A DNA stretch of 64,000 bases from Candidatus Heimdallarchaeum aukensis (GCA_021513695.1 CP084166.1:2400001-2464000); one strand, 5' to 3'; shown: positions 18,615 through 38,562, counted from the first letter of the stretch. Numbers and translations are program-made. Notes: generated by a model not told the origin, from the letters alone.

Positions 18615-18995
18615 TTAAAAATCATAAACCCAATTTGTTTCGGGAATGTACAGCAAATTTAAGATAAGTGTCCATACTGCTATAGTTACAATAAAAAACT
18701 GAAAGATTGCAGAAGTATAAAATGATTTAGTTTTAAGTCCAGTATTTTTGTTTCTATAAATTAAAAACCAAACTGAAGATGTTAATAGAAATACTCCAAG
18801 TAATGTAAGTCCTGCTGGCCAGTTTCTAAAATTAGTTACACCAAAGATTATTCCTGTAACTATTCCCACTAAAACTTTTGAATAGTACATTTTATTTGTT
18901 AAAGGCATTTCTTTAATCTTTTCTAACCAGTTGACGGGATTCAAATTGTTTTTAACTTTATTCTTAATTTTGTTCATATCAATATTCAAACTCAT
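18615..18995 (-). CDS. Small three-helix membrane protein (layout reminiscent of EMC6/Rab5ip family; speculative)
   Basis: 126 aa. Gly/small-residue-rich helix VLVGIVTGIIFGVTNF, then helix AGLTLLGVFLLTSSVWFLIY, a basic loop RNKNTGLKTKSFY, and a third helix AIFQFFIVTIAVWTLILNLLYI. Confidence 0.5.
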   Translation of the reverse strand: MSLNIDMNKIKNKVKNNLNPVNWLEKIKEMPLTNKMYYSKVLVGIVTGIIFGVTNFRNWPAGLTLLGVFLLTSSVWFLIYRNKNTGLKTKSFYTSAIFQFFIVTIAVWTLILNLLYIPETNWVYDF

Positions 18996-19011
18996 TCACC
19001 CAGGTGTTAAT

Positions 19012-21027
19012 ATGAAATCATCATTAACTTCATTAGATATCAATTGTCTTGTTGAGGAACTGAGACCCGAAATTATCGGCAGTTGGCTCAATAACGTCTA
19101 TAACATTGGAGAGAAATTACTTATTTTAAAGTTTCGAAAGTCTAGCAAAATTAATTTTGAGCTTATTATTGAACTAGGAAAAAGGTTTCATATAACAAAA
19201 TATGCCCGAAGTAAACCACCTGCTCCGAACAACAAGGTAGCAATGATGCGTAAACATATAAAAGGACTTCCTGTTGATGATTTTTATCAAATTGGTTTAG
19301 ATAGAATTATAGTATTTGAGATAGCTTACAAAGATTCACATTATAAGCTAGTTATTGAGTTGTTTGGAGAGGGGAATTACATTCTAGTAGATCCTGCAAA
19401 CAGGATATTGGTTGCTCAAACATATAGAAAAATGCGAGATAGAGATATTCATCCCGGAAAAGAGTTTTTCTTACCTCCACAACAAGAAAAAGATATTCTT
19501 TCAATTAGTAAGGACGATATTCTGGAATCTCTATCAAGTAAAGAAGAAAAAATCATCCCACTTCTCAATAAACTTTTAGGGTTAGGCCCTAAATATTCAA
19601 AAAATATTCTGGATAAGGCAAAAATCAATAACAAGGTAACAACTGAGTTAACCACCAACGAAAAAGAGTCACTCATAAAAGAAATACTAGAATTAAAGAA
19701 AATAATAGAAGAAAAAAGATATTCTCCTGTTGAGTATTTTGATGGTGAAGAAGTTATTGATATATCGCCTATTCCAATAGAGAAGTATAATGATTTAGAA
19801 AAAAAAGAACTAGATTCATTTAATGATGCTCTAGATGACTTTTTCACTGAAAATGAAGAGACACCAGAGTTCGAGAAAACAGAAGGAAAAATAAAGAGTA
19901 CTCAGTCAAAACATGAAAAAATTCTCCAGAATCAAATTGAACATAAGAAAAAACTAGAATTACAAGAGGAGTTAGAAAGAAAAAAAGGTGATTTACTATA
20001 TGCTCACTTCTCATTAGTTGATGAATTGCTAAACACCATTATAAAAGCGAGGAAAAATAATGTTCCTTGGTCTGAAATAGAGAAAAAAATGGATGAAGCA
20101 AAAAAGAAGAATATTCCTGCAGCATTAATCTTACACAAGATCAACCCTAAAACAAAAGAAATATGGGTAAAATTGGAAGATTTAGAAACTGGAGAAAATG
20201 AAATAATTGTACTAGATTTCACTCTTTCTGTTGCCGATAATGCGAATAAATTTTATGAAAAAAGTAAGAAGGCAAGGAGAAAAATACCAGGGGCCATCCA
20301 AGCAATAGAACGAACAAAACAACAAATTGAGAAAATGAAAGAGAAAGGAGAGCAACTTCTTACTGAAAAAGAAACTAGAAAAATGGTTGAAAAACGTCCA
20401 AAACGATGGTTCGAAAAATTTCACTGGTTTTTATGCGATGACACTGTAATCGTTGGAGGAAAAGATGCTAAATCCAATGAAAGATTACTTAAAACTTATC
20501 TGGAAGACGATGATCTCTTTTTCCATGCAGATGTGCATGGAGCCCCTTATGTTATAGCTAAAGACGGTAGGAAAAAACTCTCTGATGAATGTGTTAAAGA
20601 AATAGCAGCTTTTGCTCTATCGTTCTCAAGTTTGTGGAAAGCAAAAAAATTAGTGGGCGATGTCTATTACGTAAATCCTGATCAAGTGAGCCTAAGTGCT
20701 CCTTCTGGACAATATCTGGCTAAAGGAAGTGTAATGATATATGGAGAAAAGAATTATGTTAAGAATGTGGAAGTCAATCATGTGTTGGGATTAATCATTC
20801 ATGAAAACTACGCTCAGGTAATTGGAGGACCTATGAGAAGTGTTGACAATAAAACTGACATGATAATAAGATTAAAACCTGGCGAAATTAGTAAAGGAAA
20901 AATAGCAAAAATAATAAAGCAAAAGTTTATTGAGATGTGTCCAGAAGAAGATAAGTACAAAGTTGAAGCTCTTGATATTAATGAAATAATGGACTTCATT
21001 CCTGGAGATTCAGAGATAATAGAATAA
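19012..21027 (+). CDS. NEMF/Tae2/RqcH-family ribosome quality control protein (NFACT-N, coiled coil, NFACT-R/DUF814)
   Basis: N-terminal SLDINCLVEELRPEIIGSWLNNVY...ILKF (FbpA/NFACT-N type), a central K/E coiled coil, and C-terminal WFEKFHWFLCDDTVIVGGKDAKSNERLLKTYLEDDDLFFHADVHGAPYVI (DUF814). ATG at 19012 preferred; the track TTG at 18931 would overlap the divergent gene. Confidence 0.85.
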   Translation: MKSSLTSLDINCLVEELRPEIIGSWLNNVYNIGEKLLILKFRKSSKINFELIIELGKRFHITKYARSKPPAPNNKVAMMRKHIKGLPVDDFYQIGLDRIIVFEIAYKDSHYKLVIELFGEGNYILVDPANRILVAQTYRKMRDRDIHPGKEFFLPPQQEKDILSISKDDILESLSSKEEKIIPLLNKLLGLGPKYSKNILDKAKINNKVTTELTTNEKESLIKEILELKKIIEEKRYSPVEYFDGEEVIDISPIPIEKYNDLEKKELDSFNDALDDFFTENEETPEFEKTEGKIKSTQSKHEKILQNQIEHKKKLELQEELERKKGDLLYAHFSLVDELLNTIIKARKNNVPWSEIEKKMDEAKKKNIPAALILHKINPKTKEIWVKLEDLETGENEIIVLDFTLSVADNANKFYEKSKKARRKIPGAIQAIERTKQQIEKMKEKGEQLLTEKETRKMVEKRPKRWFEKFHWFLCDDTVIVGGKDAKSNERLLKTYLEDDDLFFHADVHGAPYVIAKDGRKKLSDECVKEIAAFALSFSSLWKAKKLVGDVYYVNPDQVSLSAPSGQYLAKGSVMIYGEKNYVKNVEVNHVLGLIIHENYAQVIGGPMRSVDNKTDMIIRLKPGEISKGKIAKIIKQKFIEMCPEEDKYKVEALDINEIMDFIPGDSEIIE

Positions 21028-22567: not shown

Positions 22568-23305
22568 TCACTTGAATTTTTTTACGAGTTGTTTTAGAAT
22601 TGTTTGTATTGTTTCTATTTTTTCTTCTATTTTCTCCACTCTTTTAACAAGCTTATTGAATTCGTCAGCTGATACTTCTACTTCTCCAGAGACTGATTCC
22701 ATCATCGATTCTTTAATATCTATAATTCCAGGAGCAAGTTCTTTTTTCTTTGTTACTTTAACGTTATTTGCTTCGAGAAGTGTGTAAGCCAAGAAATCAA
22801 ACGTTTCTTGGATATTTTGTCCTGTTAATGCCGATGTTTCACTATAGTAGAAGTTTATTCCCGTTTCAGTCATTAGTCTCTGACAAAATTCTATAGCCAT
22901 TTTCTGTGATACTCTCCTATTTTCTGGAGGAAGATCGATCTTATTAGCTATTACAAAGTAAACTAGAATTCCAGAATTTGAACCTTCAATACTCTCTTCT
23001 AGCCATGTTCGTAGATTAGTCATTGTTTGTTGATCTTGGATATCAAATACCAACAAAGCAGCTATAGCTCCTTTATAAAAAGTTGACCTAACAGCTGAAT
23101 AGCTATCTTGTCCTGCAAGATCCCATATCTGAAAAGTGATGTCATTGTCTTCTACTTTTACTTTTTTTGAAGCAAAGTCAGCCCCAATTGTTTTAAGATA
23201 GTCTCCTGTAAATCCTTTTCCCATATATCTCTCTCTAATAGAGGTCTTTCCTACTGCTCCATCTCCAGCCAATACAATTTTAAAATTCCATTTTTTTCCT
23301 GTCAA
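22568..23305 (-). CDS. Rab/Ras-like small GTPase with C-terminal coiled-coil extension (no prenylation motif)
   Basis: G1 GDGAVGKT, switch I YLKTIGADF (Rab-like TIGxDF), G3 WDLAGQD, YKGAIAALLVFDI, G4 ANKIDL, G5 ETSALTG. Tail VSADEFNKLVKRVEKIEEKIETIQTILKQLVKKFK. TTG start lies 4 nt after the upstream gene's TGA. Confidence 0.85.
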   Translation of the reverse strand: MTGKKWNFKIVLAGDGAVGKTSIRERYMGKGFTGDYLKTIGADFASKKVKVEDNDITFQIWDLAGQDSYSAVRSTFYKGAIAALLVFDIQDQQTMTNLRTWLEESIEGSNSGILVYFVIANKIDLPPENRRVSQKMAIEFCQRLMTETGINFYYSETSALTGQNIQETFDFLAYTLLEANNVKVTKKKELAPGIIDIKESMMESVSGEVEVSADEFNKLVKRVEKIEEKIETIQTILKQLVKKFK

Positions 23306-30139: not shown

Positions 30140-31072
30140 TTAAAATAGATTAGTACTTAACATTAATGGTGGAATAATAATTAGTACATTGGCGGCTAAT
30201 ATTGCTGCATAAGCAAATTTATTCCAGTTAAGAATTTTTTTTCCGTCTAGCTGCCATAAGGGAATGCAATTAAAAAGCGCAATAAGTCCGTTGAATAGAG
30301 TTATTTTCAAAAAGATATTTTCAAATATAGGTGAAAAAGTCAAAGGTAGAATTGCAAATTTGATAAGTAAACCAATAATTAGACTAACTCCTCCAATAAT
30401 TGCATTTATAGCTGGACCAGCTAAAGCTACAAGTCCGCCTTCTTTTTTAGTCATTTTTCGTCTAGGATCTAAGGGAACAATTGCTACAAAGCCAGGAACA
30501 ATTAAACCTATTTGGAAAATTAAAGTAAATAATGTGAATAGAATACCTTTTGTCCATAGAACATACCTTGCAAATTGTCCTTTTTTAATTGCCACAAATT
30601 TATGAGCTAGTTCATGAGGTAGAAAAGCTGTACCAATAAGGATTCCTGAAATAATAAATCCCCAGTAGTTTCTTTCGAAGATAAATTCTGATATCCCAAA
30701 TACAAGTATAATTAGTCCAAAACCAAAAATCAGGTCTAAAGCTTCTGAACCTAAAGAAAAAATATCAGGAGAAGCTAACAATCTTCTAGTTATTAATTCT
30801 TTTTTCGATTTATTGTCTAAACGAGATAATTGGTCATAGTATGCTTGTTGGGCTTGTTTTTGAACATATTCTGCAGCTTTTTGTATTCCCGTCATTATAG
30901 CAGAAGTTGCTTGCGCTACTGTCTCTGCTTGTTCTGGGAAAGATTGACCTAAAAAGATGGGGCATTGATGATTTTGGGGATCACGATGCTCCTCACAGAA
31001 AGAGTGGTGACAATATCTACAATAAAAGAGTATATCTTCATCTCTATTACAGTTAGGGTAATCGCATTTCAT
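30140..31072 (-). CDS. AN1-type zinc finger fused to M50 (site-2 protease-like) membrane metalloprotease, copy 1
   Basis: AN1 pattern CDYPNCNRDEDILFYCRYCHHSFCEEHRDPQNHQC, then membrane helices with HELAHKF (HExxH) and NCIPLWQLDG (NxxPxxxxDG). Confidence 0.75.
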   Translation of the reverse strand: MKCDYPNCNRDEDILFYCRYCHHSFCEEHRDPQNHQCPIFLGQSFPEQAETVAQATSAIMTGIQKAAEYVQKQAQQAYYDQLSRLDNKSKKELITRRLLASPDIFSLGSEALDLIFGFGLIILVFGISEFIFERNYWGFIISGILIGTAFLPHELAHKFVAIKKGQFARYVLWTKGILFTLFTLIFQIGLIVPGFVAIVPLDPRRKMTKKEGGLVALAGPAINAIIGGVSLIIGLLIKFAILPLTFSPIFENIFLKITLFNGLIALFNCIPLWQLDGKKILNWNKFAYAAILAANVLIIIPPLMLSTNLF

Positions 31073-32982: not shown

Positions 32983-33975
32983 TTAGATGTAAAATATGTT
33001 GTTTAGAATAATATAAACAAAATAAATAATTATATTTGAAACCCACAGTCCCCATGCAAGATTTTTTTTCCATTCAAAAATATAATTTCCATCGGATAAA
33101 GGAAATAAAGGCATAGCATGGAAGACAAGAAAACCAAAAATAAATACAACTAAAGCACTTGAAAATGAATATAAAGCGATGATAAAACTAGATGCAGGAT
33201 AAAAAGCTCGCAATAATGTGAAAATAGCTGCAATAATTTCCCATCCAAGCAACCATGAAACACCAGCTAAAGCAGTTATTCCATATTCTCTCCTTACAGG
33301 GTTGATATCATTTAGATGAATAATGTTTCCTTGTGTTCTTCTGAATAATCTTTTTTTGAGGATAAGTATTGATGGAGGTAGTATGAGAACAGGAAACACT
33401 ATTGAAAGTAACGATATCAAAAATGCTTGCAACCATAAAGCATTTCTCGCACTTACTCCAGCTCTTTTACCTACAACAAAATGTATTACTTCGTGTAATG
33501 AATAAGTTAACCCAATTCCAATGAAAATAGTGGGTAAAATAATAAGAATTGTATTTCTGTAGAATTGGAGATTGACAGTGAAATATAGAGAAAGAATAAT
33601 AGAAATAAAAACTGTAGGGATTAAGATGTTAAAGAAATTCTTATCAAACGAATAAAGGGTGAAAAAAGCTGATCTCGCCAGAAATCTATCTTTTTTTTCC
33701 AAGTAAGAAGACGTTCGTTTAATTTTTTTGTTTGACATATCAATAGGAAAAACTTTCTCTTTTTTCTCTTCAGTTATAATTTTTACAGGAGTAGTAGCTC
33801 TACTGACCTTTGATTTTTTGTATTCATCAGATTGAAAATAGTTTAATTTTATACAATTATGTTGTTCTGGAAGTCGGTGTTTTGAACAATAATAATTACC
33901 ACAGAGTTTACACTTAAAAGGCAGCATCTCTTCTTCATTGTTACAATTTGGATATGAACATCTGGATTTTGGCAT
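32983..33975 (-). CDS. AN1-type zinc finger fused to M50-like membrane metalloprotease, copy 2
   Basis: CSYPNCNNEEEMLPFKCKLCGNYYCSKHRLPEQHNC, then helices with HEVIHFV (HExxH) and AMPLFPLSDG. ATG at 33975 lies 1 nt after the upstream gene's TAA and is preceded by GAGGAGGA; the track GTG at 33993 is less likely. Confidence 0.7.
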   Translation of the reverse strand: MPKSRCSYPNCNNEEEMLPFKCKLCGNYYCSKHRLPEQHNCIKLNYFQSDEYKKSKVSRATTPVKIITEEKKEKVFPIDMSNKKIKRTSSYLEKKDRFLARSAFFTLYSFDKNFFNILIPTVFISIILSLYFTVNLQFYRNTILIILPTIFIGIGLTYSLHEVIHFVVGKRAGVSARNALWLQAFLISLLSIVFPVLILPPSILILKKRLFRRTQGNIIHLNDINPVRREYGITALAGVSWLLGWEIIAAIFTLLRAFYPASSFIIALYSFSSALVVFIFGFLVFHAMPLFPLSDGNYIFEWKKNLAWGLWVSNIIIYFVYIILNNIFYI

Positions 33976-33976
33976 C

Positions 33977-35221
33977 TTAATCCTCCTCTTCACTATCGCT
34001 CTTTAGTGTGATTTCACAAATACGATGTTCTGTTTTTTCTAAAGAAATATCTGTCTTACATGTTTCAGCAATCCATTTTTCACAATCGTTACACATTATA
34101 TTATCTGGATGCTTCCAGAAACCACAGACAAGTAAAAATTTTTCTTCATCAAAATAAAAATCATTGATAAAACTACACTTGTTAAAAAGTTGAATCAGTC
34201 TTATCATTGGGTCAAGTTCATAGTAAATATCTTTTCCAATTTCCTGGTTGATTAATTCAATTGTTTTTTCTCTTTCTTTTAATCCCATTTCTCTTATTGC
34301 TTGAGTGCTAGCATGAACTGCTTGTTCTCTTCCTGCTCCTTCACGACTAATTTGAAAAAGACATTCTTGAATATAACCATACTCTGAAGCACATCGTGTT
34401 TCTTCGCAGAAAATTTTATCTTCAAAGATATGTGAAAAAATTGTTTCTAACATCCCTTCGATAAACGAACAAGTTTTTGTAGCAATAACTCCTAAAGAAT
34501 CTGTCCAAATAGAGTTTCTAACTGCTATTGAAGCTACTTTCTCTTCTGGGTCCAAATGCATCAGTGAAAATTTACCCCACCTGGCAACAATAGGCGATTT
34601 TAGAATCTCTGTAATTTTATCACGAGGTTTTTTAGCATTCTTAATGCTGATAGTTTGTATAATCCTTTTTCCTACTTCTTTGCCAATTTTATCTAAAACT
34701 TGTGATATAGGGTCTTCTTCACCTTCAAATTGCCCATAAAATATCATTTGTAAAAGTACAGTAACCTTATCTCTAAGTTCCCTTAAAGTTGTTGCCAAAA
34801 AAGGAAATTCTTCAAGGGTTGGAGAAGTATAATTAACCACATTTAACAATTCTGGTGATTCTTTTAATTTTGTGATAGATCTTTCCATTTCATCTTCAGT
34901 TGAAGAAATCATCAAATATTCTGTAATTGTTGGGTCAAAAATAACAACAGAGAGCATGAATTCTTCTTTTCCTCCCCTCGCAAGAGGATTTGGCACAGAG
35001 AAAAACATACTTGAGTAAACTACATTTACCATTGCATTGACAAAGGCTTTCATTTCTTGTAAAAAATTGAAGTCCATTAACCGTGTAAGGCTTGCAGTAA
35101 TTCTATCATCTTTTATTTCTGCTATGTGGAAAAGAAGGCGTGGACCTAATCTTTGGTCAAAGTGAAAAAGCATCACGTTTATTCTGTCTAGAAGATCTTT
35201 TGGTTCACTCATATTCTCCAA
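33977..35221 (-). CDS. Multidomain protein: longin/roadblock-like N-terminus, V4R (TRAPP/Bet3-like) domain, C-terminal Cys/His cluster
   Basis: V4R-type pattern KTCSFIEGMLETIFSHIFEDKIFCEETRCASEYGYIQECLFQI. N-terminal INVMLFHFDQRLGPRLLF...ARGGKEEFMLSVVIFD has an alternating strand/helix pattern. C-terminal VCGFWKHPDNIMCNDCEKWIAETC...HRIC. Confidence 0.5.
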   Translation of the reverse strand: MENMSEPKDLLDRINVMLFHFDQRLGPRLLFHIAEIKDDRITASLTRLMDFNFLQEMKAFVNAMVNVVYSSMFFSVPNPLARGGKEEFMLSVVIFDPTITEYLMISSTEDEMERSITKLKESPELLNVVNYTSPTLEEFPFLATTLRELRDKVTVLLQMIFYGQFEGEEDPISQVLDKIGKEVGKRIIQTISIKNAKKPRDKITEILKSPIVARWGKFSLMHLDPEEKVASIAVRNSIWTDSLGVIATKTCSFIEGMLETIFSHIFEDKIFCEETRCASEYGYIQECLFQISREGAGREQAVHASTQAIREMGLKEREKTIELINQEIGKDIYYELDPMIRLIQLFNKCSFINDFYFDEEKFLLVCGFWKHPDNIMCNDCEKWIAETCKTDISLEKTEHRICEITLKSDSEEED

Positions 35222-35256: not shown

Positions 35257-36297
35257 TTATAGTTTTTTTGTATAAAGATATCCTATTGCAAATGCAGGAC
35301 TAAATTCTACTGAAACAAAATCACTGCCTTTTACTATTTTAATATTTGCAAATTCTTCATCTTGTGACAAATAGTCAAATAATAAGTCTGCTCCAATTCC
35401 AAAAAGAACTATCTTATCTAACCCATATGCTTTAAGCTTTTGTTGAATTGCATTTTTAATTATGTTTAATATCTTTTGAATAAGATTATCAGTAATTTTT
35501 TGTAAAATATCCATGTTCTCCTTATAATTTGAGATACAAAACATCTTGCTTACATTTCTGTAGGCATTTTCTCTAATTTGATCAAGAGTTAAATTTGTGT
35601 CAGTTTGGGAAGTATGTAGATCATTTGAGATAAAGAAAAGATCTTCTGTTCTAGCATGAGGAAAAGAAGGAAGGTAGATTTTTTTACCATCAAAAATAAA
35701 TGGATTCTCGATATTTACTAAATTTGTTTCTAAAGTTCCAATAAACAATAGTTCATCATTTAACATTCTCTCATAATTATTTCTAGAATTTGCAGCATAT
35801 TTCCCTTCCTTTACAGGAGCTAGTGAAAAAGTTCTAGTCGAAAATTCTATAGCAAGAAAATCTTCTTTAACAAAATCATAAGCTGCTTCTGCTAAAGCTT
35901 TCCAACCAGCTGACACAACTTTGGAAGGGTTTTTCTCTGCTTCATCTGGAGATAGAAATGAATTATCCAAAGAATAATAACTTACATTATTTACGTATTT
36001 GTTAACAATTTTGCCAATAAAGGATACTGCTTCTTGATCAGAATCAAAAACAGGCTCTGCAGAAGTGGTTAATATGAAATCCCTGATTCCAAAGTCGCTA
36101 TATGAACGTAGAAGAGACTTAATAAAAGTTTCAAATTCATCTTTTTTCTTATTTAGAGAAAAAAGAATTCTCTGATAACTTAAAGGTGAATCAGGTTGGG
36201 AAGGGTCTATTACGCAAATTTTCTGTGTTGTGATTCCAATATCCAAGACTGCTATAGCATTATGTGATGTAAAAAAAGTAGAATTTGTGATATTCAT
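35257..36297 (-). CDS. Putative ASKHA-superfamily (sugar kinase/Hsp70/actin fold; hydantoinase-A-like) protein
   Basis: N-terminal AIAVLDIGITTQKICVID (phosphate-1-like) and C-terminal IVLFGIGADLL (adenosine-motif-like). Pattern-level only. Confidence 0.35.
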   Translation of the reverse strand: MNITNSTFFTSHNAIAVLDIGITTQKICVIDPSQPDSPLSYQRILFSLNKKKDEFETFIKSLLRSYSDFGIRDFILTTSAEPVFDSDQEAVSFIGKIVNKYVNNVSYYSLDNSFLSPDEAEKNPSKVVSAGWKALAEAAYDFVKEDFLAIEFSTRTFSLAPVKEGKYAANSRNNYERMLNDELLFIGTLETNLVNIENPFIFDGKKIYLPSFPHARTEDLFFISNDLHTSQTDTNLTLDQIRENAYRNVSKMFCISNYKENMDILQKITDNLIQKILNIIKNAIQQKLKAYGLDKIVLFGIGADLLFDYLSQDEEFANIKIVKGSDFVSVEFSPAFAIGYLYTKKL

Positions 36298-36374: not shown

Positions 36375-37019
36375 TCATCTATTTCTAAAAATCACTCCCT
36401 CTGGCTCGTCATCTTGTTGTTCTATTTTCGTTTTTTTCAGCTTTTTTTCGTTTACCTTGACATTCTTCAGATAAGTTTTATCTCCAACTAGTTTTGCTTT
36501 TGGATATATGTTTGAAATAGCTTGACAAATTTCAGCTAGTTTTCTATCCTCAATATATTCTCCTAAAAAGAATTCTTTTCCTTCTCTGGTATAAATGAGA
36601 AGCATACCTTTATTTTTATGTTTTCGAAGATCTAGCGATAACTTTCTAGGAATTCTTGACATACCATACCTTCTTATTTCAACAAGAGGTAAATTATTTT
36701 TTCTTATTCTAAATCCTGTTACAAGCATAGGAGTGGATCTATAAACTAAGTGCTTATCTTTTGTTATCTTAATAAAATCACGAGGATATGAAATCTCTTT
36801 AAACAAGCGATTAATGAAAATAATTGAAGGTATGATGATTACAACTATTGCTATAACCCAATCACCTATATTTGCTGATTTGAAATATACAACTGTTGCA
36901 ACAAACGCTCCTATCATTATAAATGTTGAAACAAGATTAAGAATGAAATCCTTCCAACCAAATCTCTTAGCTTGAACTTTAATTAATGCTTCATCTTCTT
37001 TTTTTGCCATTTTAATCAC
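36375..37019 (-). CDS. Membrane protein with two N-terminal helices and a cytoplasmic PH-like domain (tentative)
   Basis: 214 aa. Helices FILNLVSTFIMIGAFVATVVYF and WVIAIVVIIIPSIIFINRLF. GTG at 37019 overlaps the upstream stop (GTGA); an alternative ATG is at 37010. Confidence 0.5.
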   Translation of the reverse strand: MIKMAKKEDEALIKVQAKRFGWKDFILNLVSTFIMIGAFVATVVYFKSANIGDWVIAIVVIIIPSIIFINRLFKEISYPRDFIKITKDKHLVYRSTPMLVTGFRIRKNNLPLVEIRRYGMSRIPRKLSLDLRKHKNKGMLLIYTREGKEFFLGEYIEDRKLAEICQAISNIYPKAKLVGDKTYLKNVKVNEKKLKKTKIEQQDDEPEGVIFRNR

Positions 37020-38032
37020 ATTTTCTTGTTAAAATCATTAACTAGTTTTACAATAAGGTCTAAACTTTCTTCTTCTACATCAAGAGGGATCACACAACCA
37101 GGAGCTAAAATGTTTCTCTTTATTTCCGCAGTCACTTCTAAACTTTTTATTATATTATTAATTATCTCTTCTTTATTTCCTTCGACTAATATTTCCTCGT
37201 TAATCCCTGCGAGGAAACCCCTTTTTTTTGTGATCTCACTTGCCTCTGAAAGAGATGGCCAAGTAAGCTGGTCATGCCAATTGTATGCGTGTGTTATTAT
37301 CCTCTCTGTTGCCTCTCTAAATAGAATGTTTTCTCCATGAATATGAAATACTGTTATTGGAGACTTTTTTCTTACACGTTTTATCAACTTCTCGATAAAA
37401 AACAACTCAAATTTATTTATTTCCTTATTAGTTAGTGAGCTAGGTCTTAGATGCTGTGAGGCAATAAATAAACCCTCAGCTCCAAAATCAAGAGAAGCCA
37501 TAGAAAATTCAGAAATAACCTCATAGAGAATATTTAATGCTTCAAAAATAATTTTAGGTTCTCTCTTGATGTGTTCCTCTATATTTCTATCCAATTTTGA
37601 AGCAACCATTAATGGGCTAAAAATAGTATTAATTTTGGGTAAAAATTCTAACTTTCTATTAATTAACTCGACTACGCGAAGTTGTTTACCAAATTCTCCA
37701 TCGTTCACGTCAACTTGTTCAATATTTTCCCAATCTTCGATTTTTGTTATTACTGGTTTAACACATCGCGTTGAACCACTCACAGGATCATATTCATCAG
37801 CTATTTGACATCCAAAGTCAACACAAGGATAACGTCCATGAAGAGAGATTTTCATTAAATCAAAGTTGAAACGATTGTAATAGTCAATATGTGCTTTGGC
37901 TAACTTGTCTGGGTCGAGATCGATTAAAGGAAAATGTCGCCAAAAAGAGAAAAGAATTCTTTCATCGTTTAAACCTGAAAAGGTGTCTAGAACTAGCTGC
38001 AGTTTATCCACTAGAAATCCCTCGGTTTGCAT
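37016..38032 (-). CDS. Uroporphyrinogen decarboxylase (URO-D)/MtaA-like family protein
   Basis: 338 aa. Overall TIM-barrel-like pattern with ERILFSFWRHFP, DLMKISLHGRYP and ITVFHIHGENILF, as in anaerobe URO-D-family methyltransferase-like proteins. Moderate, pattern-based call. Confidence 0.5.
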   Translation of the reverse strand: MQTEGFLVDKLQLVLDTFSGLNDERILFSFWRHFPLIDLDPDKLAKAHIDYYNRFNFDLMKISLHGRYPCVDFGCQIADEYDPVSGSTRCVKPVITKIEDWENIEQVDVNDGEFGKQLRVVELINRKLEFLPKINTIFSPLMVASKLDRNIEEHIKREPKIIFEALNILYEVISEFSMASLDFGAEGLFIASQHLRPSSLTNKEINKFELFFIEKLIKRVRKKSPITVFHIHGENILFREATERIITHAYNWHDQLTWPSLSEASEITKKRGFLAGINEEILVEGNKEEIINNIIKSLEVTAEIKRNILAPGCVIPLDVEEESLDLIVKLVNDFNKKM

Positions 38033-38562
38033 AATAGTTCTTTCATACGTAGGTCAAAGAATGTGCTTGTATGTGCAGGTTTAATTACCCAAGCAGTATC
38101 AGCTCCTCTTCCTGTTCCGCCTACAGAAATGACATCTTCCATTTTTATTAATCCTGCATCAGCAGCCATTAAAACTATCTCTGCTGCAACTTTTGTTCCT
38201 TGACCAAAAATGCGAAGGGTTTCAGCAATTAATTCCGAAATTTGCCAAGTACCATGCTTTTTTCGAATAGCTCTATCAATTCCCGCTAAAGCATGAGTAG
38301 CAGTTAATACTTCAACTCCTTTTTCTTTTAATGATATAATCATCTCTTCAGAGATCTCCATCTCTCCTGGAGAACGAAAACCAGCTTGATGTGTAACAGC
38401 AATAATTCTAGCATTTTTAACATTCTCAGCAGCATATAACGCAGTCTGGCCTTTTGTAGTAGCTACAATAACAGTATCAATTGAGCTTTCTTTTAGTTTC
38501 TGATTAACAATTTCGAAAACCTTCTCTGAATAATTTCCTGTTTTTTCAAAATATACTGTCAT
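38011..38562 (-). CDS. Pyruvate kinase C-terminal (alpha/beta) domain-like protein
   Basis: 183 aa. VIVATTKGQTALYAAE...IIAVTHQAGF...GTKVAAEIVLMAADAGLI...VISVGGTGRGADTA fits the stand-alone archaeal PK_C-like family. Overlaps the next gene by 22 nt. Confidence 0.55.
   Translation of the reverse strand: MTVYFEKTGNYSEKVFEIVNQKLKESSIDTVIVATTKGQTALYAAENVKNARIIAVTHQAGFRSPGEMEISEEMIISLKEKGVEVLTATHALAGIDRAIRKKHGTWQISELIAETLRIFGQGTKVAAEIVLMAADAGLIKMEDVISVGGTGRGADTAWVIKPAHTSTFFDLRMKELLCKPRDF

Follow-up and report, generated by a model that had tools for sequence, protein, structure and literature searches.

What does an archaeon do with a single protein that joins a longin domain to a V4R domain, and which of the neighbouring genes belong with it? 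The question is raised by a gene on the minus strand of a 64,000-nucleotide stretch of the Candidatus Heimdallarchaeum aukensis genome (GCA_021513695.1 CP084166.1:2400001-2464000), here called the window. The initial annotation of this DNA, made from the sequence alone, read the gene as a longin- or roadblock-like protein with a V4R domain and a cysteine cluster, coupled to a downstream protease gene. It overlooked that the longin is specifically of the FLCN/NPRL2 GTPase-activating protein (GAP) class, and that the conserved gene partners stand upstream. The gene is real and conserved in Heimdallarchaea. Its product has three modules: a longin domain, a domain of the V4R/TRAPPC3 fold and a four-Cys module that is found only within the family. 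Whether Asgard GAP-type longins regulate small GTPases, and which signals they would read, bears on how eukaryotes came by their membrane trafficking and nutrient signalling.

Part of this is already published. A Heimdallarchaeal longin-TRAPPC3 fusion is reported in the part of PMC10933270 devoted to it, and Asgard longins with a GP motif and an arginine finger are described in PMC12290439 and by Liu et al. (bioRxiv 10.1101/2020.10.19.343400). The main text of these last two papers does not use the term V4R, and neither the four-Cys module nor the operon is mentioned there. What is new here is that the fusion has a longin belonging to the GAP class and continues into a four-Cys module, and that the conserved partners are three upstream genes and not the protease.

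A conserved protein of three modules

The whole open reading frame spans 33977..35221 on the minus strand, but the TTG at 35221 is only the start that gives the longest frame. The start supported by homologues is the ATG at 35212, three codons in. All 26 homologue clusters begin there with M-S/A-E, and GGAG stands before it. The product is then 411 aa long and matches K9W45_10910 of Ca. Heimdallarchaeum aukensis, annotated as hypothetical, at 100% identity. There are thus two numberings, one of 414 aa from the TTG and one of 411 aa from the ATG, offset by three residues. We use the second unless the first is named.

A search of 5.8 billion proteins returned 26 homologue clusters, all full length and 57-96% identical. 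Those with a source name are all labelled Heimdallarchaeal. A scan of GTDB species representatives found the gene in 29 loci. This open reading frame is not a product of chance: it has homologues of full length in 29 species-representative genomes, 56-96% identical in the best tblastn segment. The closest named counterpart, in H. endolithica, is 96% identical to the 411-aa product. The family alignment (27 sequences) averages 75% identity. Invariant throughout are, among other residues, the N-terminal LFHFDQRLGPRLL and ARGG, the middle domain's four Cys and the pattern C-x10-C-x2-C...H-x2-C near the C-terminus. AlphaFold run with this alignment resolves the full protein into three modules at a mean predicted local distance difference test (pLDDT) of 74.5. 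Hidden Markov model (HMM) searches of the PDB with the N-domain, wide N-domain and full-length profiles gave no longin or V4R match. The gene and its parts are as follows.

33977..35212, minus strand: entire gene (411 codons and stop), encoding in order the longin, the V4R domain, a helical linker and the four-Cys module
34733..35212, minus strand: N-terminal longin domain of the FLCN/NPRL2/SMCR8 "GAP-longin" class, about aa 1-160
35141..35146, minus strand: GP motif G23-P24 in the beta1-beta2 hairpin, within LFHFDQRLGPRLLF; family-invariant, aligns with the HGP of FLCN
34973..34978, minus strand: Arg79-Gly80 inside the PLARGG of the beta4-beta5 loop (R82-G83 when counted on 414 aa); the Arg is a candidate arginine finger
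34337..34720, minus strand: V4R / TRAPPC3-fold domain, about aa 165-292
34361..34471, minus strand: four invariant V4R cysteines C248, C269, C274 and C284; putative structural or redox-sensitive zinc site
34004..34177, minus strand: C-terminal beta-beta-alpha-beta-beta module, C363-x10-C374-x2-C377-x21-C399; putative zinc site of four Cys, to which the family adds H396

The middle domain has a V4R/TRAPP-type alpha/beta fold. Its sequence points to V4R proper rather than to Pfam TRAPP. Pfam V4R (PF02830) matches it at E=5.7e-6, with 26.8 bits against a cut-off of 31, and a precomputed PF02830 match is on record for all 26 homologue clusters. In sequence it is matched best by the NCBIfam model MsvR, over that model's V4R region (E=7.4e-11). 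Pfam TRAPP (PF04051) reaches only E=0.1 on the window protein, over 37 residues and with 12.8 bits against a 27-bit cut-off. By fold, Foldseek places it closest to the domains with which DmpR, PoxR and MopR sense phenol. It must be noted that Foldseek scores TRAPPC3 and MopR about equally, and that Naegleria and Thorarchaeota TRAPPC3 are among the best matches (E 3e-4 to 4e-4).

The V4R-type cysteine pattern that had been read from the DNA is present, with one correction. The spacer before the last Cys is nine residues, not ten, and the pattern is TC-SFIEG...FC-EETR-C-x9-C-LFQI. The four Cys are invariant in 27 of 27 sequences. They may bind zinc, in the kind of Cys-based site that ties the V4R sheet to a helix, by analogy with Thor-TRAPPC3 and PoxR. 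The relevant part of PMC10933270 gives the first of these a four-Cys zinc site and the second a zinc site as well. In MsvR, cysteine residues modulate redox-sensitive DNA binding, according to the passages of PMC3729527 that treat them. The domain resembles the phenol sensors, MsvR and MJ1460 in having a Cys-rich site comparable to the zinc site of PoxR and the modulating Cys of MsvR. It differs in what it is joined to. The V4R domains of DmpR, PoxR, MopR, MsvR and MJ1460 have DNA-binding or AAA+ outputs or stand alone, whereas the one in the window has a longin as its partner.

The third module follows a long helix and is itself followed by an acidic tail, and its secondary structure is taken from the AlphaFold 2 (AF2) model. 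In the 414-aa numbering used for the cluster of Cys and His first noticed here, C366, C377, C380, H399 and C402 are family-invariant, but the Cys in "ETCK" is not. Neither fold nor sequence searches with this module gave relatives outside the family. The only match of its profile was the C1-type domain 2db6 (E 0.067). We reject it, as the score is at the level of chance and the ligand spacing is unlike that of the C1 pattern.

A distant full-length ortholog, P0029, has all three modules at 27% identity (E=1e-42). In the BLASTP alignment it keeps all four C-terminal Cys and lacks the His, which points to a four-Cys site. In its V4R domain the last two Cys are in register, the first two are replaced, and there is one Cys two residues upstream of the first.

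The longin and its class

The alternating strands and helices proposed for the N-terminus are borne out by AlphaFold, which gives the topology beta-beta-alpha-beta-beta-beta-alpha-alpha. When the N-domain is modelled alone the pLDDT is 79 and the predicted template modelling score 0.78. The original call of longin or roadblock can now be narrowed. Topology and similarity to solved longins identify the domain as a longin. A roadblock/LC7 domain would show an alpha-beta-beta-alpha-beta-beta-beta-alpha topology with roadblock proteins as best matches, and neither is seen, so this identity is rejected.

The longin belongs to the FLCN/NPRL2/SMCR8 GAP class, from which eukaryotic longin GAP complexes draw their catalytic subunit. 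Longins of this kind turn small GTPases off in the nutrient sensing of eukaryotes. Several lines of evidence bear on this. The structural one is the Foldseek search with the N-domain alone. All 13 matches at E<=1e-3 are a Lokiarchaeal longin, NPRL2/3 of GATOR1, FLCN/FNIP2 or Lst4. DENND10 and C9orf72-SMCR8 come next in rank, and no SNARE, TRAPP or adaptin longin is found at E<=1e-3. The best structural matches to the window longin are thus the catalytic domains of eukaryotic longin GAPs.

Another line is the pair of motifs. A profile search of 1.84 billion representatives gave a wider set of 26 distant longin relatives with a mean column identity of 29%. Only G23, P24, D47, R79 and G80 are invariant across them. 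The GP motif stands at the beta1-beta2 turn, as described for GAP longins in PMC12290439. That paper reports the same arrangement of GP and arginine finger in Asgard longins, Heimdallarchaeal ones included, and proposes GAP activity for them. Our assignment also agrees with the fusions of NPRL2-like longins that Liu et al. describe.

Folliculin itself offers a direct comparison. It has LCHFCELHGPRTLF and FFIKDSLARGF, with Arg164 as its arginine finger. A folliculin query sequence retrieved real folliculins at about 95% identity from the database. We aligned 16 of them, and Arg164 and Gly165 are nearly invariant across these. Unedited, hhalign places LARGG of the Asgard profile on LARGF of FLCN, that is on Arg164, at P=0.004 and a probability of 8-14%. 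FLCN has an insert at residues 27-104 that is poorly conserved and consists largely of gap columns. With this insert cut out, the alignment covers 101 columns and both motifs at 74.5% probability (P=2.7e-5), and the reversed control gives P=0.29. The invariant R79 is thus aligned with the Arg164 position, in an alignment that is weak unless the insert is removed. PF11704 (Folliculin) is the sole Pfam family matched by more than two of the 26 relatives, though it is matched by only three, weakly, with a best E of 0.037.

The protein is then like FLCN (in FLCN-FNIP), NPRL2 (in GATOR1) and SMCR8 (in C9orf72-SMCR8-WDR41) in having a longin fold with GP in beta1-beta2 and Arg-Gly in beta4-beta5. 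Unlike them, it is fused to V4R and four-Cys modules, has no DENN or NPRL C-terminal domain, and is only marginally similar in sequence. It is also like the "FLCN/SMCR8-type" and "NPRL2-like" Asgard longins (PMC12290439; Liu et al., 10.1101/2020.10.19.343400), which come from the same phylum, have the GP motif and Arg finger and are fused to signalling domains or GTPases.

Such fusions recur in our wider set. Leaving aside the family studied here and P0029, the 26 relatives are stand-alone domains or N-terminal fusions. The same longin is N-terminally fused to Arf-family GTPase domains, with Pfam Arf matches of 6.3e-24 in P0030, 3.3e-48 in P0039 and 5e-25 in P0042 and weaker ones in P0033 and P0035. 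It is fused to PAS sensor domains in P0048 and P0049. The few relatives with a source name are from Lokiarchaeota or Promethearchaeota. P0044 is also an Arf fusion, and a DVGGQ/DVAGQ motif is kept in P0039, P0042 and P0044.

The conserved neighbours stand upstream

The genes on either side of the target, all on the same strand, are these.

37016..38032, minus strand: URO-D-family gene, distantly MtaA/CmuA-like, first of a conserved four-gene cluster (Pfam URO-D 9.9e-23)
36375..37019, minus strand: conserved 214-aa protein whose N-terminal segments are hydrophobic and probably span the membrane (open reading frame and conserved position)
35257..36297, minus strand: MfnF-like / Hydantoinase_A-family gene (NCBIfam MfnF 7.5e-34 and TIGR03123 1.2e-33, both below cut-off)
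33981..33988, minus strand: Shine-Dalgarno-like GAGGAGGA for the downstream gene, in the last codons of the target (read directly)
32983..33975, minus strand: AN1 zinc finger and multi-pass M50-like (site-2-protease-type) membrane protein, a lineage-restricted neighbour

Synteny was examined with the neighbours from the window as queries against all 29 species-representative loci, and the result agrees with the called-gene tables. Wherever a locus includes upstream DNA (27 of 27), the MfnF-like gene comes directly upstream of the target on its strand. In most of the other species the target's ATG is overlapped by the end of this gene. The URO-D-like gene and the 214-aa gene, which overlap each other by 4 nt, precede the MfnF-like gene in every one of the 29 species-representative loci that reaches that far. 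The MfnF-like protein matches only 3c0b in the PDB (1.5e-21), an uncharacterised archaeal structure. The URO-D-like protein has a below-cut-off match to NCBIfam PRK06252 (3.8e-16) and no relative in a PDB sequence search. Pfam and NCBIfam scans gave no significant family for the 214-aa protein.

Before the URO-D-like gene, and overlapping its start by 22 nt, is a gene for a small protein like the C-terminal domain of pyruvate kinase (38011-38562, minus strand; PK_C 1.6e-8). This gene is also found in H. endolithica. The other called-gene loci have an opposite-strand ribosomal S25 gene upstream of the URO-D-like gene.

The downstream side tells a different story. The tight junction first read here is exactly as described: the target ends in ...GAAGAGGAGGAT TAA G ATG CCA, with the stop at 33979-33977 and the ATG of the next gene at 33975-33973, and the Shine-Dalgarno-like GAGGAGGA does lie inside the 3' end of the target gene. 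The identity of the neighbour as an AN1-M50 protein also holds. It matches zf-AN1 at E=5.9e-13 and keeps the HExxH and DG motifs of an M50 protease as LHEVIH and PLFPLSDG. The gene itself has no Pfam M50 match. It is 27% identical (E=5e-24) to an AN1 paralog at 30140-31072, and that paralog matches Peptidase_M50 (PF02163) at 4.3e-8.

What fails, in most lineages, is the conservation of the pair, whose absence the initial annotation had itself named as a refutation. We counted adjacency over the 23 species-representative loci with at least 1 kb of downstream sequence, and an AN1-M50 gene directly follows the target in two of them. One is H. endolithica; the other is the P0016 lineage, whose gene had been called from too late a start, so that its AN1 finger was hidden. 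The same arrangement is found in the window and in two metagenome contigs. It is missing from the largest clade and from P0029. The adjacency may be ancestral, because in a rough neighbour-joining tree the cases fall in two of three deep branches. Even so it is dispensable, as the largest clade has lost it without change to the target. The AN1-M50 coupling is a lineage-restricted accessory and not a defining feature of the family, and the functional context is conserved upstream instead. This corrects the picture of the locus, in which the protease coupling was the striking part.

The paralog at 30140-31072 (minus strand) stands in a block of FTHFS(-) / AN1-M50(+) / FMN-dependent dehydrogenase (FMN_dh)(-). 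This block recurs 0-9 kb downstream of the target in eight species representatives, at a variable distance. Two or more partial FTHFS matches are found downstream of the target in several species (L019, L023, L030). They suggest gene fragments and rearrangement in the variable region that holds the AN1-M50 gene of the window.

The locus of P0029 has neither the upstream set nor the downstream AN1-M50 neighbour. Its gene is on L009 1-17287 (contig DAOWED010000089.1), amid genes for Yip1, ubiquitin E2, Vps28, EAP30, Vps4 and ESCRT-II, with HypF/D/C genes scattered among them. Such a membrane-remodelling setting has little in common with the surroundings of the gene in the window.

What the protein may do

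We argue, tentatively, for a three-module cytosolic protein that regulates a small GTPase, probably as a GAP, under the control of its V4R domain as a sensor. Arg79 would be the arginine finger, acting on one of the archaeon's small GTPases (Arf-, Rag- or Rab-like). Input would come through the V4R domain, where either a small hydrophobic or aromatic ligand or the redox state of thiols and zinc gates the output of the longin. The whole protein would then be a metabolite-to-GTPase switch regulator in one polypeptide. The ligand is probably tied to the chemistry of the upstream URO-D-like, 214-aa membrane and MfnF-like proteins, and these three conserved operon partners may point to what it is. 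In the genome of the window and a few relatives the AN1/M50-like membrane protease would additionally be co-translated, as an accessory.

The protein is probably a homodimer. The argument for this comes from a published protein, the Heimdallarchaeal longin-TRAPPC3 fusion MBD3190748.1, for which AF2 predicts a homodimer (Tran et al. 2024, PMC10933270, in the part comprising Fig. 9g and Supplementary Fig. 10g). Going by the description in that part, the two are alike in being Heimdallarchaeal and in having an N-terminal longin and a TRAPPC3/V4R fold. Unlike the analysis here, the same part of the paper gives MBD3190748.1 no GAP-class longin, no C-terminal Cys module and no gene context.

A more specific version would tie the V4R domain, as a metabolite or redox sensor, to a FLCN/NPRL2-type arginine-finger GAP, so that the product of the URO-D-like and MfnF-like enzymes controls an Arf/Rag/Rab-like GTPase at the membrane. 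We consider this version unlikely. If it were true, the archaea most closely related to eukaryotes would have in this protein a forerunner, still prokaryotic, of nutrient signalling by FLCN/GATOR1, and one that joins the two folds that later built TRAPP. The family is a compact case that can be tested: a soluble 411-aa protein from a complete Heimdallarchaeum genome, with Arg79 as an obvious candidate for the catalytic residue, a sensor domain of its own and the GP motif.

Several points weigh against a GTPase regulator. Sequence homology to FLCN is weak and marginal, as the low probability of the unedited hhalign run makes plain. The window protein has no Pfam Folliculin (PF11704) match, and an HMM search of the N-domain against PDB chains gave no match, FLCN and NPRL2 included. 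The invariant Arg79 could be structural. In eukaryotes a GAP longin works in a heterodimer and has a DENN or NPRL-specific domain after it. Neither trait is seen here: the window holds no second longin of the target's family, and the window protein has no DENN or NPRL-specific domain, its C-terminal part being V4R and four-Cys. The conserved cluster contains no GTPase gene. The nearest one is a Rab-like gene at 22568-23305, 10.7 kb off, and no other small GTPase was detected in the window. Finally, the link to the upstream enzymes may be a family-level feature or simply inherited synteny, because P0029 lacks the upstream enzyme genes.

One can imagine other roles for the same architecture. The TRAPP core also has both folds, with Bet5/Trs23 longins flanked by the Bet3-like Bet3/Trs31. 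A chain with a longin and a Bet3-like domain might dimerise into a small mimic of that core and serve a Rab-like GTPase as an exchange factor for guanine nucleotides (GEF) or a tethering platform, not as a GAP. The TRAPPC3 matches by Foldseek fit this, as does the presence of a Rab-like GTPase gene in the window. Tran et al. read their longin-TRAPPC3 fusion as evidence that longin, TRAPPC3 and GTPases interact functionally (PMC10933270, in the part cited above). However, TRAPP is a GEF made of separate subunits, whereas here there is one chain, and TRAPP longins are reported to be without the GP and Arg motifs (PMC12290439). The V4R and TRAPP scores of the middle domain also disagree with a Bet3 identity. 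We regard this role as quite improbable.

A role without any GTPase is doubtful too. Here the V4R domain would carry a hydrophobic intermediate, or present it, to the URO-D-like and MfnF-like enzymes at the membrane protein, and the longin would serve for dimerisation or docking. V4R domains in general bind small molecules, MfnF acts on a phenolic substrate, and V4R proteins of the BchJ type have been proposed as carriers of a hydrophobic intermediate. The best fold matches of the middle domain are phenol sensors. The four-gene order that is never broken where it can be read, and the overlap of the target's start with the end of the MfnF-like gene in most species, speak for this role. It does not explain why GP and Arg-Gly are strictly invariant across relatives fused to GTPase and PAS domains, and P0029 has all three modules without the upstream enzyme genes. 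All the loci with the cluster come from one family as well, so inherited synteny is possible. A further alternative is the protease unit of the initial annotation, in which the target would be a cytosolic sensor or adaptor for regulated intramembrane proteolysis by the coupled AN1-M50 protein. The junction with its one-nucleotide gap and internal ribosome-binding-like site, the AN1 and M50-like motifs, and the pairing seen in H. endolithica, in P0002 and P0003 and in the lineage of P0016, which spans two of three deep branches of the rough tree, all speak for it. Yet the adjacency is absent from 21 of the 23 species-representative loci and from P0029, and the target is fully conserved there. 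The second paralog sits in a separate block at a variable distance, so that AN1-M50 genes are simply frequent in this neighbourhood. We consider this unit very improbable.

For the GAP-type regulator that we prefer, the window also offers a candidate client. The Ras/Rab-like GTPase encoded at 22568-23305 on the minus strand (Pfam Ras 9.7e-40) has a C-terminal extension of about 70 aa. The window also has, at 18931-21027 on the plus strand, an NFACT gene (ribosome quality control, Rqc2/Tae2-type) with the N-terminal and RNA-binding domains, which is ordinary for archaea.

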